DNA of 45,652 nt from Picochlorum sp. SENEW3 (taxonomy: Eukaryota), in the NCBI GenBank assembly GCA_034226945.1, contig CP120462.1, positions 930,001 through 975,652 on the forward strand, given 5' to 3'. This document shows, piece after piece, positions 949 through 29,850 of this stretch. Every line of letters begins with the position of its first letter. Position 1 is the stretch's first letter. A program made the position numbers and the translations under genes. The notes beneath the pieces were generated by a model. That model had not been told where the DNA came from, did no database searches, and worked only from the letters and a program-made list of their open reading frames with translations.

Positions 949-2283
949 TTAACACCCGACGGGTCTTGGCGTGTACATCTCAGAAAGGTACAGCAAGTGG
1001 TCTGCCAGGGAGGAGCAAAAGCCAAAGCGACAAGCACCTCTGTGGCACTTTGGATCTTCACCAGATCCGTCGCAGACACCTACTAGAGTTCTACTAGGAA
1101 CCACGTCTACGATCCATATTTCTTGCGCGATATGAGAGAATCCCATGTACATGGGCGGGAGAGAAGGTATCATGTCTCTGTTATGGGTGAACCTGAGATG
1201 CTGCGGAATGGTCTTGCCGTACCAAGATGCAAACACAGAGTTTCCCACCCGCGGGGAACCAAACGTTATCAGGCGAACATCCGGAATTTTTAATCTCAGT
1301 TTCATTTCGAGGGCGCACAGCGTGGCAAGCGCACCTCCCAGGGAGTGTCCCGAGACAAAGACGGTGGGCATTGACCCAAGGTTCTCATCACCAGCGTCCC
1401 TCAACATGCCCTGGTCCCATCCCGCGCCCGAACCTCCACCTGAGCCCCTCGGGTGTTGTCGTCGCTTTGATATGATATTTAGAACAGCCTCTGTCACGTT
1501 CCCCGCCAGGTATGAACTATTGTACGAATAAAAGAAACCCCCGTGCACAAGGGCCTGTGGTGGCATTGCTTCGTATGAGAGTGATAGGTCCGTCCTCCAT
1601 GTCTTCATGTTCTCCACCCAGTTATAATACGAGTGACTGTCAGTCCCTCTGAATGATATGATAATCCCGTCCAAATCATCACTCCATCCTACAAAGCCTT
1701 GCAAATCCCACAGCGGATCAAAAATAGCCCTTTCCAAGACAAAGCCATCCGTGCAACGAGAACAGTTCCAATTTTCGATGTTCTCCGGACGGCAGTACGA
1801 TGCCGCGACGAACTCTGAAACAGCTTTTGCCACGCCAATATCAAGCAATCCACTGCCAGCCTTGGCGTACATGGCTTTGCTGTCGAGCAGCCAGGAGAGG
1901 CTCCCTGGTACCAGGTATGCAGCGTCCGAGGAGTTGTACGTGTACCAGGGGACTGGTTGATCCTTTGGATTCTTTCTATGTGGCCACCACCAAGAAAATC
2001 TGTCGTCTACGCCGTTCGACCGTCTGACCATGCGTTGTTCTGCTATAAGAGACTCTGGAAGCCACAACCGCGCTGTGGCACCAAGCCTGCCGTCCGAACC
2101 CATCGGAGAGACGTCTATCGCCTTGAGTTCGGCATTCCAAGGCCACCACCATCTCATATAGTTGTAACATTCTCGAGCCGTAGGCATTCCAAGTCCTCCC
2201 GGTGCAAGAGCCAAAGCCACAACAACCACCGAAACCAGGAGTGCCCCGCTTGCCAAGGTGAGGCAGCAGCGATTTCTATGCAT
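949..2283 (-). CDS. Class 3 (fungal-type) triacylglycerol lipase with N-terminal signal or anchor
   Basis: 444 aa ORF with SFRGT, VHGGF, GHSLGG nucleophile elbow, TFGSPRVGN, HNRDMIP and DHLLY, plus a hydrophobic N-terminus. Confidence 0.92.
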   Translation of the reverse strand: MHRNRCCLTLASGALLVSVVVVALALAPGGLGMPTARECYNYMRWWWPWNAELKAIDVSPMGSDGRLGATARLWLPESLIAEQRMVRRSNGVDDRFSWWWPHRKNPKDQPVPWYTYNSSDAAYLVPGSLSWLLDSKAMYAKAGSGLLDIGVAKAVSEFVAASYCRPENIENWNCSRCTDGFVLERAIFDPLWDLQGFVGWSDDLDGIIISFRGTDSHSYYNWVENMKTWRTDLSLSYEAMPPQALVHGGFFYSYNSSYLAGNVTEAVLNIISKRRQHPRGSGGGSGAGWDQGMLRDAGDENLGSMPTVFVSGHSLGGALATLCALEMKLRLKIPDVRLITFGSPRVGNSVFASWYGKTIPQHLRFTHNRDMIPSLPPMYMGFSHIAQEIWIVDVVPSRTLVGVCDGSGEDPKCHRGACRFGFCSSLADHLLYLSEMYTPRPVGC

Positions 2284-19100: not shown

Positions 19101-21125
19101 AAGAGCTCGCTTCAGTCCGAAAAGGCAACTCTGGAGAGGGAACACCGAACTGTCAAAGCACAACTTGAAAGGCTCTCGAAAAATGCCGAGAAAGCTGCCG
19201 CGCTCGAGGAGCGCAAGAGAATGCCGCTGGTCAAGGAACTCGAGGAAACAAAGCAGAGACTTGTAGCTCTGGAAGTGGAATTCAATGCATCCCAGGTAGC
19301 AATAGAAGAATCAAAGGCGCAGTACAGCGAGCTGCAAAAGCTTTTGGAGAATGAACGCGAGAAGCACGATGATACCCTGGCCGCCATGGAAGGGTACAGG
19401 CAAGATTTGGAGACTTCAAATGAACGAGGTGATGATTTGGCAAAGACTCTGGAGCAGAGGCAAGTTGCTCTTGAGGAAGCAACCCTGCAAATATCCAGCC
19501 TCGAAAACTCTCTTATTGATGCCAACAAGGAAATAGCCCGTTTCAACGAGGAAATCAGCAGGCAGCAGTCCGCACTCAGAGTTGAAGCTGAAAAACAGAA
19601 TGAACTCCAGAGACTTGTTGAAACTCTGCAAGCCGATAAAAAAACCTTGGAGAATGCGTTGACAGAGGCAGAGGCCAATGTAGAAATGATGGACTCTCTT
19701 CGACTAGACCTGCAGGCGGAAAAAGCACATGTGGTCACAATCCAACAAAATTTTGAGCTGCTGGAGAAGGGACTTGAGGTATGTTGTTTCGCTTGAGTAA
19801 TGAAGTACAATGAGATCACTGTCCCGTCAGAAACATCTCGTTGATTTCTTTTCATGCAGGACCATAAAAAAGAGTTGAAATTATCGGAAGAAGCACGCAA
19901 GAAGGCCGAGGCAGCCGCTGGGGCTTCCAAGACCACCCTAGCGGAAAAGGAGGAGTACATCTCGAGTCTGGAGGCACAAGTCAATGAGGCCATGGCAAAG
20001 GCCATGGAAATGGAAGCAACTCTGGACGCTTCAAAGTCTGAGGTCAAAAAATTGAGCAGTCTTTTGTCACAGGCTGAGCATGCAATCGAAGAGCATGACA
20101 ATACCATCACTGAGATCCATCAGGAGAAGGTTGCGATGGAGAAATCATTGATAGCCACTAGAGAGCATGCTAAAGAATTGGAGGATCAAATTGAGCGGCA
20201 TGAGGGCCAAATTCAAGATCTTGAGCATAGATTGCAGCAGGAGGGTGAATCCCTGAGAAATTCAGAAGTCTCCATGGAGAAGTTGATGGCTGCATTCCAG
20301 GAGGAGAAAGACAGTCTTACGAATAGAGTTCGCTCTCTAGAGGAAGAAAATGGTCTTCTTGAAAAGAGGTTGGTGACTGAGATTGAGCAAGTTCGAAAGT
20401 CGAAAGAAGAACAGCAACAAAGATTCGAACACGATATAGCAGCGTCCAAGGAGACAGCCAATGGCAATCTAGAACTGGCGCAGCAGAGGCATCAGGAGGA
20501 GCTGCAGGAATTGCAGACCAAGCTGATTTCATGGCAGGAAAGACTGACCTCCGAGCAAGCCAAGCACCAAGGAGCAATTGACAGACTCCAAGCCAGTCTG
20601 GAAAGTGGTGAGCGTGCCAGGCACAAGTTGATTGAGGAGAGGGACATGGCACTCCAGGAGAGAAGCAACATTCTCTCGGAGCTTCAGGATGTGGTACAAC
20701 AAAAAGAAAGGGCAATAGCCCAGAGTGCGGATCAAATAGCCTCACTAGAGCGCCAGGTCAAGGGACTGCAGTCCCTCAAGCTCAAGAGCGAGACCCATGG
20801 CATCAAAGAGGATTCCAGGACAAAGCGCATTGATTCGCTCGAGCAAAAGTGCTTGATGCTGGAAGGCGAGCTACGCAAAAGCAAAAGACGCGAGGAGAAA
20901 CTCCAAGCATTGCAGTATAGATTACAACAAGATTTCAAACAGTCTTCAGGGTCGCTCGAAATGCTTGCAAACCTCCGAGACGTCAGGTCCTTGGAGTACG
21001 AGCTCGATCGAACAGCCAACCGAGCAGAAAAAGAGATTTCAGCCCTGAAGAAAGCCCTGAAGAAAGCCACAGAATCATCCAACGCCAGGAGCGCCCTTAT
21101 GGGAAAGGAGAATCAGGATCCATAG
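16148..21125 (+). CDS. Kinesin-7 / CENP-E-like motor with a long coiled-coil tail, about 1593 aa. Exons 16148-16173, 16289-19778, 19860-21125.
   Basis: ENIRVYVRLRP formed across intron 1. FAYGQTSSGKT, SSRSH, LVDLAGSE, HIPYRDSKLTRILQPSLGGNAKTAIIC and LLKKQAKEIEELR. Intron 2 (19779-19859) joins the two long ORFs in frame. Confidence 0.92.
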
Positions 21126-25984: not shown

Positions 25985-28111
25985 CTATGCCATGGCGAGG
26001 CTTGTGGCTTTTCTTTGGATTGCCCTCTCCAGAAACAGACCAGCGCCAAGACCTGGCGCATACCTTGCCATGAGATCTTTATAGTACTCGGTCATTTCGG
26101 AATACTGTGATACAACCTTCTCCGCCTCTGCCCCCTTCTCCTCCATGACTTGCATGGCCCTCGTCTTATCAGCGATGGAGGACTGGGCACTCCTCAGCTC
26201 CTGTTGGAGGCTCTCAAACCTGTCAATCAACTCTTGTTTCTCCACCGCATGGTGCTTCTCTGCTTTTTCCAGAGCGCTCGCGATTCCCAGCGAAAGAGTC
26301 TCGGGAGCATTCCTTTTCAGTTGAAGAACCTCTTTTTCCACTTCTACCAGCCTTTCAGAACGAGATCGCAAACATTCCTGAGTTTCCTCCAGTTTATCCT
26401 TGGTCATCATCAACTCGACATTTGTAGCCTCGCATTGCTCCTCCAACTCGGCTTTTTCTTTCACGAGAAGATCCATTTTCGCATTGTATGATTTTTCCAC
26501 ATTGGAAATCGCCTCGTCCCTGGAAGCCTCCAACTCTTTCACCTTGGACAGCAGACGCCCCTGCTCAGCGAGGACAGCCTCCTCTACCATCTTTGTGCTG
26601 GCTTTCTGGACGTTCTCCCGCTCTGTCTGCTCCATAATGAGCCTTTCTCGAAGTGCAGCAGCTTCACCACGTAGGGCTGTTTGCGTGCGCTTCAGATCCA
26701 GTTGAATCTCGGATGACTCTGCTGCCATGGATTCCATGGTAGCCTCTGCCCCAGATCTGACAGCGTGTATTTCGCTCTCGAACTCGGCCCTGGCTCTTTC
26801 AACTTCCTCTTCCAGTGCTTCCTTGTGCCTGTTCTGCAATATATCAACGCGAGATTGCAATACTTGAATCTTTTCTTCGAGACTCTTCTTCTCAGACCTC
26901 TCTGAGGCCAGACCCTCCTGGTACTCCTGCTCCAGGGCCCTGATCCGAAGCTGGACCTCAGCCTCCTGTTCCGTCTCTTTGCTTGAATACGATCTCTTCA
27001 TTGTCTCCAAAGACTCTTCAAACTTCCTCACGCGTTCCCGAAGCCTGATCTCGAAATTCTGATGCTCTGCAGCGAGTGCTGACCTGAGGGACACAAGCAC
27101 ATTTGTGAGCAGCAGCTGCTGATCATGCAGCACCATCCTCGCAGCAGAGAGTTCTTCTAACAATCTTGTTTCCCGGATGGATAAAACCCCGTCCACGGAA
27201 TTCTTGACATTGTTAGCCTGCCAATCAAGTGAGTTTAGTCTCCTCTGCAGCGTCTTGATCCTGGTGGACAACTCTGCACCCAGCTCATTAGCGCTCATAT
27301 GGGGGATTTTTTCCATGAAATCTTTGTCCACAATCGTCTCAACCTCAGTCGTGACCTGCCGTTTGTCCGTGGCGGCATTCATTGCTCTAGCATGCTCGGT
27401 CTGCAACGAGGCCAGAGCAGCCTTCAGTTCGTTGATTTCCTTCACATGCTGGGCCTGTTTGTTTTCATAAGATGTCACTATACTTTGAATACCGTCATCG
27501 CACCGAATGTGGCGGTTTCCAGATGATGTGGAGCTTCCTCCACCCTTGACCAGTTTCCCAGCAATATCGGTTGCCGCCAACTCACACTTTTTCTTATCCG
27601 TCAAATACTTGGATAGCCTTTCCTGTAGCTTTTCGTATTCTTTTTCCTTCTTTTTCAACTCATGCGCCATGTGAACCACTTTGCTCTCGCTGCCTTTGAG
27701 CCTTCTCCTCAAGTCCTCTACTTCTCTCTTGGCTTTCGTTGCATCGTCCTTCCATGTCTCATCCTTAACCCGCGCTTTTGCTTCCCACGACTTCAGCTCC
27801 TTTTCTTTAGAATCTAGATGATTTCTCAGCTTGAGTTTCTCCTTCTTTTCTAGCTGCAGAAATTGCCTCGTCTCCAACAGCTCCCCCTTTAGTTTTTCCT
27901 TATACTCAATGTCCTTTTCATGCTTGACCAGCAGCGTATAAATCGCATCACACGTTTCCGCGACATCTTCCGGTTGGTTAGACATGAGATTGATGGACTT
28001 GTCGATGCCAACCCGCTGCAGCGCAGAGGACACAAACTCCACACTTCTAGGAAGGGACTGGCCCTTGCTGGGAGAAAGGATTGCGTGGTCCTCGGCGTAC
28101 GAGTCGCCCAT
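25985..28111 (-). CDS. Long coiled-coil protein with a probable ADIP/SSX2IP (afadin- and alpha-actinin-binding) N-terminal domain
   Basis: FVSSALQRVGI...TCDAIYTLL...HELKKKEKEYEKLQERL resembles the ADIP domain, and the remainder is heptad-rich. A probable 5'-UTR intron lies at 28320-28148. Confidence 0.65.
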   Translation of the reverse strand: MGDSYAEDHAILSPSKGQSLPRSVEFVSSALQRVGIDKSINLMSNQPEDVAETCDAIYTLLVKHEKDIEYKEKLKGELLETRQFLQLEKKEKLKLRNHLDSKEKELKSWEAKARVKDETWKDDATKAKREVEDLRRRLKGSESKVVHMAHELKKKEKEYEKLQERLSKYLTDKKKCELAATDIAGKLVKGGGSSTSSGNRHIRCDDGIQSIVTSYENKQAQHVKEINELKAALASLQTEHARAMNAATDKRQVTTEVETIVDKDFMEKIPHMSANELGAELSTRIKTLQRRLNSLDWQANNVKNSVDGVLSIRETRLLEELSAARMVLHDQQLLLTNVLVSLRSALAAEHQNFEIRLRERVRKFEESLETMKRSYSSKETEQEAEVQLRIRALEQEYQEGLASERSEKKSLEEKIQVLQSRVDILQNRHKEALEEEVERARAEFESEIHAVRSGAEATMESMAAESSEIQLDLKRTQTALRGEAAALRERLIMEQTERENVQKASTKMVEEAVLAEQGRLLSKVKELEASRDEAISNVEKSYNAKMDLLVKEKAELEEQCEATNVELMMTKDKLEETQECLRSRSERLVEVEKEVLQLKRNAPETLSLGIASALEKAEKHHAVEKQELIDRFESLQQELRSAQSSIADKTRAMQVMEEKGAEAEKVVSQYSEMTEYYKDLMARYAPGLGAGLFLERAIQRKATSLAMA

Positions 28112-28562
28112 CTTTTGTTCAATCAAATCGATTTCCTATGTATTGTTCTGCACATCCACGCATACAATTGCGTCAGAACCGTCAACCGCTGTCACGTTCA
28201 TCCAGTCGGTTGGTCCACCGAACTCTTCCATCGGTCCCCGCGCATCCACAAAATCGCATCCATATACTGTATAATTTTATTTCCAATAAATCATCATACA
28301 TCGTCCATGAACCACGCACCTAGTATCTTCCACTTCGAGACAATGACTGTTGTTGTCGTCAACCGTCAGAGTTACAGAGCATGCAGAACAACCCAACCAC
28401 GATCAATGTGAATTATAACCATTAATATTCGTAATTTAAATTCAATATACCTGCTGCTAGGGAAGAGGCGACCGCCTTGTGCGTACCGTCCGAGCTCGAG
28501 CGAGGTCGGATTTCTTCGATGCGGATTTCGATTGCATGTCATGCTGTACGATGCGGATCCCC

Positions 28563-29013
28563 TCATTTTCTTTCCTGATCTCGCTTCCGTGACTGTGGAT
28601 CTGCTGGATATCCAGAGGCCGGAAGAAGACGAAGTCTGATTGGTCCCTTGACTGCACCATGCAAGACGTTTCCTTTCTGCAAGATCTCAATCTTGCCTTG
28701 TTCTCTCAGGCCCAAAGCAACCCCTCTCGTTTGATCCATCTGTACAAATGCAAGAACCATCCGTTAGTAACGTCGCTAATCGCTGCGAAAACAACAAAAA
28801 TCAAAAGACAAAACACACAAAGTCTCTCCAGTTCTGTGGGAACAGTTTCCTGGGAATCTCGCTGGGTCAACACGTTTTCTCACACCCCCTTGCTTCCAAA
28901 GTCTGTAATATCGAGCATTCAAGCAAATGCTCCGTGTCACGTGATCTTTTGACTTTGTGGTTTGGGACATCGGAGTCAGGGACGTCCCTGCCAACTTTGC
29001 GCTTTTTCTCCAT
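28563..29013 (-). CDS. DUF3253-family protein with in-frame TGA at the conserved Cys (candidate selenoprotein), 123 aa. Exons 29013-28819 and 28739-28563.
   Basis: MEKKRK...LLECSILQTLEARGCEKTC*PSEIPRKLFPQNWRDF|MDQTRGVALGLREQGKIEILQKGNVLHGAVKGPIRLRL. TGA at 28869-28867. Intron 28818-28740 has a perfect TACTAAC branch point (28769-28763). Matches the DUF3253 pattern KTICPSE...WR...M...G.IEITQKG...GPIRLR. Confidence 0.85.
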
Positions 29014-29148
29014 CGATACTCGGTCACAGGGCTTCGATCTATTCGTAGTATGACTACTGTACGTATGAGTTTTTTACAATTGTTTTTACAAATTTGTACA
29101 GGGCGAACAATATGCATCCATCGTTGACATTCGAATGCCAATTTGAAG

Positions 29149-29197
29149 TGAGAATTCCATCCGATCCAACCCTTAGTTGGATCGGCGGGTCATCCCA
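29149..29197 (-). promoter_or_regulatory. SECIS-like stem-loop (ATGA-N11-AA-N19-GA)
   Basis: The minus strand reads TGGG ATGA CCCGCCGATCC AA CTAAGGGTT GGATCGGATG GA ATTCTCA, with a CCGATCC/GGATCGG helix and a TGGG/CTCA lower helix. The position upstream of the TGA-containing gene is atypical. Confidence 0.4.
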
Positions 29198-29357
29198 GTG
29201 GCATAGCCCATGAGCTATGGCAATCACACGAGTGCATACCGAGCATTCTCACTCAAGAAAACGTTATACAAAAATATCGTTCGGAATAACCTGTTAGGGC
29301 TACAACCGAAGCTTAAACATCTTTCAGGAGCCGTACTCTCAATCACTTGAATAAAAC

Positions 29358-29850
29358 ATGAAGGTTGCTGCTGCTTACCTCCTCGCCAAGCTCGGTGGAA
29401 ACGACGCTCCATCTGCTGATGACATCAGCAAGATTTTGGGATCCGGTACGTGGTTTATTTTTGACTGTCTGTCGGGAGACTCGTGCACCATGAGAGCGTG
29501 AATGACTTCGCCAGGCGACGCCGGCGGAGCCGTCACGGCCTCCCACTCTCCGGCCACTTCCACAGCAGGTGTGTGTGTTGACCCTGATATATTCGTATTT
29601 CTGTTGTGCAGTTGGTGTTGACACGGACGCTGATGCCGCTGCTCTCCTGATCAAGGAGCTTGAAGGAAAGGACGTCGAAGAGGTCATCGCCGAGGGCCGG
29701 GAGAAATTGTCCTCCGTCCCCGCCGGGGGTGCCGTCGTCGCTGCTGGAGGTGCTGGGGGAGCTGCTGCTGATGGAGGCGCAGGAGCTGCCGAGCCAGAGC
29801 CAGAAGAGGAGGAGGAGGACGAAGACATGGGATTCTCCCTCTTCGATTAA
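29358..29850 (+). CDS. RPP2: 60S acidic ribosomal protein P2. Exons 29358-29445 and 29612-29850.
   Basis: [33 protein letters not shown]...[14 protein letters not shown]...[14 protein letters not shown]. Confidence 0.97.

Follow-up and report, generated by a model that had tools for sequence, protein, structure and literature searches.

Does the UGA codon that interrupts a small DUF3253 gene end translation, or is it read as selenocysteine? The question is raised by a stretch of 45,652 nucleotides (hereafter the window), in which an earlier note had pointed to a two-exon gene of 123 codons on the minus strand, opening with the ATG at 29013 and broken once only, by the TGA at 28869-28867. The window holds genes for a kinesin, a mitochondrial carrier, a plastid-type GPAT with a GPAT_N domain, a glutamine synthetase and an ADIP coiled-coil protein. 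It is eukaryotic and compact and, to judge from the plastid-type GPAT_N and the compact spliced genes in its sequence, fits a green-lineage picoeukaryote. Public runs were compared over 28000-29400 of the window, and the features of the locus are the following.

29014..29074, minus strand: 5' UTR between the 5' ends of the contigs and the ATG; no upstream ATG
28819..29013, minus strand: coding part of exon 1, 65 codons from the ATG at 29013-29011, with the basic N-terminal tail and the first DUF3253 half
28867..28869, minus strand: in-frame TGA, codon 49, in the context TGT TGA CCC and the motif T-C-U-P-S-E; candidate selenocysteine codon
28740..28818, minus strand: intron 1, 79 nt, phase 0, GTGTGT...TACTAAC...TACAG (GT..AG)
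28563..28739, minus strand: coding part of exon 2, 58 codons (28739-28566) plus the stop TGA at 28565-28563, with the second DUF3253 half and the C-terminal tail
28320..28562, minus strand: first part of the 3' UTR, present in contigs of X17 (to 28474), X18 (to 28513) and X15 (to 28320)
28148..28319, minus strand: second intron (GT..AG, 172 nt), separating the stop codon of DUF3253 from the ATG at 28111 of the downstream gene, which is on the minus strand too
28068..28147, minus strand: stretch that the X15 contig places directly after the 3' UTR sequence; it overlaps the start of the ADIP-domain coiled-coil gene (ORF 28111-25988)

The DUF3253 gene is expressed and spliced, with two exons and 123 residues. 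One contig each in X18, an oligo-dT metatranscriptome, and in X17, taken by guess to be RNA, contains the joint 28819|28739, in which 79 nt bounded by GT..AG on the minus strand are skipped. The coordinates first proposed for the ATG and the intron, and the count of 123 codons, were correct. Upstream, the contigs begin at 29074 (X17) and at 29069 (X15, with adapter sequence beyond); reading of the sequence between these 5' ends and the ATG at 29013 disclosed no other ATG, which gives a 5' UTR of about 60 nt. In the X15 contig intron 1 is kept, the sequence being colinear across 28740-28818, and X17 and X18 represent the spliced form. Retention of intron 1 may be regulated; with it, the frame would close five codons into the intron, where it meets a TGA.

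The 3' side is more complex. The X15 contig (843 nt) joins 29069-28320 to 28147-28068 and thus connects the DUF3253 exons with the ATG region of the downstream gene; the joint 28147/28320, corresponding to the second intron, is present in X15 and X17 contigs. The contig may represent a single mRNA whose 3' UTR is spliced, or two overlapping transcripts that were assembled together; the transcripts of the two genes thus either overlap or are read through. The X18 and X17 contigs end at 28513 and 28474, respectively, and some bins in 28188-28281 had no cover. On the other side of the locus, a divergent gene for an acidic ribosomal protein P2-like product, with an intron, starts on the plus strand at about 29358 (29251-29400 and beyond), some 300 bp upstream of the DUF3253 start. 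In all three RNA-type runs, contig depth was far higher over the region of this gene.

We scored each exon alone (exon 1 with U read as C) against the Pfam profile of DUF3253 (PF11625; gathering cut-off 22.1 bits). Exon 1 matched with an E-value of 2.7e-5 (24.7 bits, profile positions 4-40) and exon 2 with an E-value of 2e-9 (37.9 bits, positions 42-80). Both exons thus exceed the cut-off, which bears out the family assignment made previously, and the match is far beyond chance expectation. The two segments adjoin on the profile, and joining the exons as proposed therefore reconstitutes a single domain.

A HMMER search with exon 1 against 1.84 billion representatives returned 18 matches, 15 of which were full-length DUF3253 proteins. 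These 15, together with the near-identical cluster member P0021, form an alignment of 16 sequences (A2), all 16 of which have Cys at the column of the TGA, as expected if the codon stands at the conserved Cys of the family. The invariant columns of A2 are R37, C43, P44, E46, W56, R57, M60, R64 and R96. By reading of the alignments, the window protein retains all nine, with U standing at C43. Seven of the invariant residues lie downstream of the TGA, and four of these (P, E, W and R) belong to the 16 codons that separate the TGA from the splice site. In BLASTP comparisons with P0004, a homologue with Cys, exon 1 was identical at 28 of 52 positions, in an alignment spanning the U column, exon 2 aligned to residues 60-98, and 12 of the 16 codons from TGA to splice specified identical residues. 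A second Cys often precedes the invariant one, most homologues reading T-C-C-P-S-E; the TGT TGA of the window gene gives the corresponding vicinal Cys-U pair in T-C-U-P-S-E that had been noticed at the outset. DUF3253 is mostly bacterial in the resources searched, and its clusters in the protein atlas are all bacterial.

The TGA itself is genuine. Positions 28867-28869 are covered by contigs of X18, X15, X17 and X7 (the latter a DNA metagenome contig of 47.5 kb), which come from four studies, and not a single base difference was found there. Because the codon is unchanged in four runs, including RNA-derived contigs, it reflects neither an assembly error nor RNA editing. All four runs share two departures from the window sequence, at 28885 and 28888, both synonymous by frame (GGG>GGT at Gly43 and AGG>AGA at Arg42). 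The TGA is thus also present in a slightly different strain.

We considered the possibility that UGA has been reassigned throughout the genome. TGA terminates at least four other Pfam-supported ORFs of the window (DUF4336, CDP-diglyceride synthase, mitochondrial carrier and PRCC), and their Pfam matches extend to the last or last-but-one position of the profile. The DUF3253 gene also ends with TGA. TGA is therefore an ordinary terminator elsewhere in the window, the code is the standard one, and the TGA-ended ORFs rule out a genome-wide reassignment. The kinesin ORF apparently crosses a TGA as well; by its sequence this is an ordinary two-exon gene, in which an 81-nt GT..AG intron (19779-19859, plus strand, GTATGT...CATGCAG) holds the TGA.

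Three related proteins end at the same place. According to their protein records, P0003, P0022 and P0013 all have ...R-G-C-E-K-T-C as their last residues and end immediately ahead of the U column.

P0003: 48 aa, 90% identity, on a contig of up to 6.7 kb
P0022: 66 aa, 73% identity, on a contig of up to 54.5 kb
P0013: 84 aa, 56% identity, on a contig of up to 5.2 kb

P0003 differs from the window protein at five positions, all before residue 28. In the three relatives together, the differences concentrate in the N-terminal tail and the half-domain before the stop is conserved. The idea that the stop recurs at this column was thus supported at the level of protein records, and we infer that the codon is TGA in these relatives too. 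Conservation of a stop at an invariant-Cys column over such a divergence, combined with an intact downstream domain in the window, argues for recoding; the same pattern argues against a pseudogene and against a 48-residue product.

The gene had been predicted to escape ordinary gene callers, and the databases agree with this, as the only proteins that they hold for the locus are a 48-aa N-terminal stub and a 58-aa exon-2 piece. The latter, identical to exon 2, is recorded as a called gene in a metagenome. A word-index protein search with exon 1 recovered P0003 and P0022. The same search with exon 2 returned only the sequence itself at lengths of 31-102 and nothing among longer proteins, and a metagenome scan with exon 2 gave, among the matches listed, two 14-residue chance matches (L001 and L002). 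A scan of viral contigs disclosed no relatives.

A eukaryotic selenoprotein mRNA requires a SECIS element in its 3' UTR. No SECIS was detected by Rfam in the whole window at gathering thresholds, and no SECIS family was found at E<=10 in 27900-29100, in the whole window or in 28310-28575. Descriptor scans of the spliced mRNA model (29074-28819 + 28739-28320 + 28147-28040) likewise gave zero SECIS. The descriptor called for UGA...GA flanking a helix of at least 7 pairs with unpaired AA, and was applied in a gapless and in a constrained-fold version. Over the whole window, the descriptor scan returned 23 SECIS-like sites, counting both strands, and none of them is usable. A single one is near the gene; it occupies 28293-28225, within the spliced-out intron. 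The downstream candidates of ATGA/GTGA type (28296/28293, 28200 and 28194) all fall within the 172-nt intron that is removed in the contigs. The best SECIS-like hairpin of the window, at 1512-1586 on the plus strand, comprises AUGA, a 12-bp helix II, an A-rich bulge and UGAU, with an inner fold of -16.3 kcal/mol; it is antisense to a class-3 lipase ORF (952-2283, minus strand) and probably due to chance. Close to the gene, the best site is the following.

28328..28369, minus strand: SECIS-like site, CUGAC...GGAA, around an interrupted hairpin of 9 bp whose loop is CAACAGUCA; inner fold -5.0 kcal/mol

A SECIS combines the kink-turn core UGAN/KGAW with a helix II and apical A's; the core consensus is that of the available text of PMC3753652. 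The site at 28328-28369 agrees with the UGAN/KGAW core, but has a C before the UGA, a 2x3 loop adjoining the core and almost no helix I, and was not counted; it also failed the stricter descriptor. The 3' UTR as a whole folds no better than shuffled sequences (z -0.45). The hairpin directly after the UGA was not significant either (z -1.13), with 22 of 200 shuffles folding equally well. No tRNA was found in the window, and hence no tRNA-Sec there.

How much weight this negative result deserves depends on the performance of SECIS searches in related algae. The available text of PMC2375036 describes lineage-specific features in the SECIS elements of Ostreococcus, namely a core preceded by G and a mini-stem that is long, and these elements were left out of the SECISearch3 consensus model, as stated in the accessible part of PMC3753652. 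For some predicted selenoproteins of Mamiellophyceae, e.g. in Bathycoccus, SECISearch3 found no SECIS (PMC6627142, in the portion available). As published tools miss some of the SECIS elements of Mamiellophyceae, the failure to find one here is no proof of absence. This literature may not apply to the lineage of the window.

The closest structural reference for the protein is PDB 2ns0, a DUF3253 protein of Rhodococcus sp. (RHA04536) deposited as a 'hypothetical protein', which was matched by the profile of the homologues with an E-value of 3.5e-26. The AlphaFold model of P0004 (pLDDT 84.1), the homologue that is 54% identical, is a winged helix in which the Cys sits in a loop just before helix 46-51. 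In a Foldseek search, 2ns0 was the top match of this model (TM 0.85 on the target, rmsd 1.8 A), and further matches were the winged-helix domains of Fur, MarR, kleisin, DsrD and O-methyltransferases. The window protein has the x-C-P-S-E/D loop in common with 2ns0. In contrast to 2ns0 and other DUF3253 proteins, the window gene has UGA in place of the invariant Cys, belongs to a eukaryotic host, contains an intron and encodes a basic tail of about 27 residues ahead of the domain. In this model-based picture, a Cys that caps a helix, can be replaced by Sec and often follows a second Cys suggests a nucleophilic or redox centre. The description of the KKRK motif as NLS-like is a remark on composition only.

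We also looked at the neighbours of bacterial DUF3253 genes, in 159 flanking frames from 83 of 86 loci (70 frames hand-picked from the first 150 of 443 candidates and 89 taken from 101). The commonest neighbour was a short-chain dehydrogenase, at 17 loci that belong mostly to one clade. Photolyase-family domains flanked five loci (L016, L022, L027, L065 and L088), these being raw counts without a background control. Among the other flanks were Tag at two loci (L037 and L073), UDG at one (L064) and the H2TH domain of Fpg at one (L027); DNA ligase, RuvA and PriA each flanked one. Neighbours of the photolyase family or DNA glycosylases were thus seen at 8 of the 83 loci, in several phyla. A functional link of bacterial DUF3253 to DNA damage is possible.

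Taken as a whole, the selenoprotein proposal of the earlier note retained its gene model, the alignment of UGA with Cys and the conservation on both sides of the codon. None of the methods applied detected a SECIS in the 3' UTR. We hold it likely that the UGA of codon 49 is recoded. We also favour, with more reserve and on the strength of the sequence, the view that it would specify selenocysteine in a previously uncatalogued winged-helix protein with the motif T-C-U-P-S-E. Such a protein would carry a selenol beside Cys48, in the loop capping helix 2, where its full-length relatives have the invariant Cys. Insertion would proceed through the SECIS-dependent machinery, with a SECIS that is lineage-specific or was missed. 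The Sec/Cys residue would serve as a nucleophilic or redox-active centre, possibly forming a selenenylsulfide between C48 and U49. As a weak lead, the protein might be nuclear, associated with nucleic acids and involved in the response to oxidative or photo-damage, because of its fold, the conserved Arg/Lys, the basic N-terminal tail and the photolyase and DNA-glycosylase neighbours in bacteria. A variant of this reading, which we deem unlikely, is that the UGA is read as Sec, or otherwise efficiently recoded, on an mRNA truly devoid of a canonical SECIS, the signal being either an unrecognised one of different structure or one that lies across the spliced 3' UTR, and that DUF3253 is a selenol/thiol winged-helix enzyme tied to the response to DNA photodamage or base damage.

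Could the UGA simply be a true stop? The gene would then yield only a basic peptide of 48 residues, or be a recently disabled gene or a regulated unproductive transcript, with the rest of the domain as a relic. This would account for the fact that the database products are all truncated and for the failure to find a SECIS, and it could draw on the X15 contig, with its retained intron 1 and spliced intron in the 3' region, the latter being a typical trigger of nonsense-mediated decay. Yet the part after the TGA matches Pfam with an E-value of 2e-9 and keeps the seven downstream invariant residues, in frame across a phase-0 intron. The stop is shared by relatives down to 56% identity, and over that divergence a downstream half without function would be expected to have decayed here. 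From the model, furthermore, half a winged helix ending at the active-site loop would be unlikely to fold. We therefore regard a true stop as improbable. Even less credit is due to the expression of the gene in two pieces, i.e. the 48-residue peptide and a separate C-terminal product from the ATG of exon 2 (28739), which would perhaps associate. Exon 2 does open with an ATG and the identical 58-aa protein is recorded as a called metagenome gene, but the 16 codons between the TGA and this ATG would be untranslated, though 12 of the 16 are identical to P0004 and the invariant P, E, W and R are among them. Nothing here supports the reinitiation, past an ORF of 48 codons and an intron, that this would take, and we consider this explanation very remote.

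The evidence against termination does not by itself designate the inserted residue, since conservation after the UGA shows translation past codon 49 and not the identity of the amino acid. The codon might be recoded without selenocysteine, by programmed readthrough with a near-cognate tRNA (Cys, Trp or Arg), which would give a low yield of full-length protein and need no SECIS. That none was found by any method tried agrees with this explanation, as does the C that follows the UGA, since of all UGA contexts the one with a following C is the leakiest. No promoting structure follows the codon, however, the hairpin having a z of only -1.13. The stop is held at the invariant-Cys column in four diverged lineages, which is the classic Sec/Cys signature. 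Moreover, TGC or TGT would yield Cys fully, and there is no obvious reason for keeping TGA. Readthrough of this kind appears to us improbable, if far less so than the two-piece scheme.

With selenocysteine as the preferred reading, the window protein may be compared with known selenoproteins. Thioredoxin reductase has a C-terminal Gly-Cys-Sec-Gly redox centre. By analogy, the vicinal Cys-Sec pair of the window protein could cycle through a selenenylsulfide. The two differ in that the folds are unrelated and in that the pair lies in a flexible C-terminal tail in thioredoxin reductase and in a helix-capping winged-helix loop here. The likeness to algal selenoproteins is broader. As far as the available parts of the Ostreococcus study (Lobanov 2007, PMC2375036) and of the survey of 137 algae (Jiang 2020, PMC7539508) go, these proteins share with the window protein the UGA at a conserved Cys, the small size and the compact genome of a picoeukaryotic host. 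In the same portions of these two papers, green algae of the Mamiellales are credited with more than 20 selenoproteins. A C-U dyad is present in two selenoproteins of Ostreococcus, which end with GCUG and PCUGR according to the accessible supplement of PMC2375036. The C-U pair of the window protein recalls these hypothetical selenoproteins 1 and 2, although it is internal and theirs is C-terminal.

None of the three 'hypothetical' selenoproteins of Ostreococcus is a DUF3253 protein, as judged from four supplement files of PMC2375036, in which UPSE, CUPS and GPIRLR gave no match. In the available text of the 42-family algal survey (PMC7539508), whose supplement was outside the comparison, the family abbreviations include nothing resembling DUF3253. 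Both catalogues, in the parts at hand, required a SECIS (PMC2375036, PMC7539508), and none was found for the window gene. DUF3253 appeared in no selenoprotein list that we consulted; a prior listing is possible, since supplements were generally outside the search. No paper naming DUF3253, PF11625 or RHA04536 was found in the literature searched, and the matches to '2ns0' were, to judge from titles and abstracts, unrelated strings.

We also asked whether a Sec form of the family exists in bacteria. The sample comprised 36 DUF3253 matches in 35 of 401 genomes from one phylum (that of G001) and 47 matches in 46 of 401 genomes from another (that of G005). An internal stop was found in none of these 83 matches, and the sampled genomes thus contain no independent Sec form of DUF3253. 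A separate scan of bacterial genome contigs used a Cys-containing pattern and was thereby blind to Sec forms. At G325:C13:387516-387741, in one genome of the sample from the phylum of G001, the DUF3253 match is split into two segments with a 2-base overlap (profile positions 2-28 and 31-80), which resembles a frameshift and not a stop codon.

If confirmed, the reading of codon 49 as selenocysteine would make DUF3253 a new selenoprotein family. In a family with a solved structure (2ns0) but a blank function, it would point to a catalytic or redox role of the invariant Cys, and thus provide a handle for its biochemistry. It would also mean that pipelines combining homology with SECIS prediction still overlook selenoproteins in marine picoalgae, whose SECIS elements are atypical. 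The missing SECIS in itself makes this gene a useful test case for the signalling of Sec insertion in picoalgal lineages.
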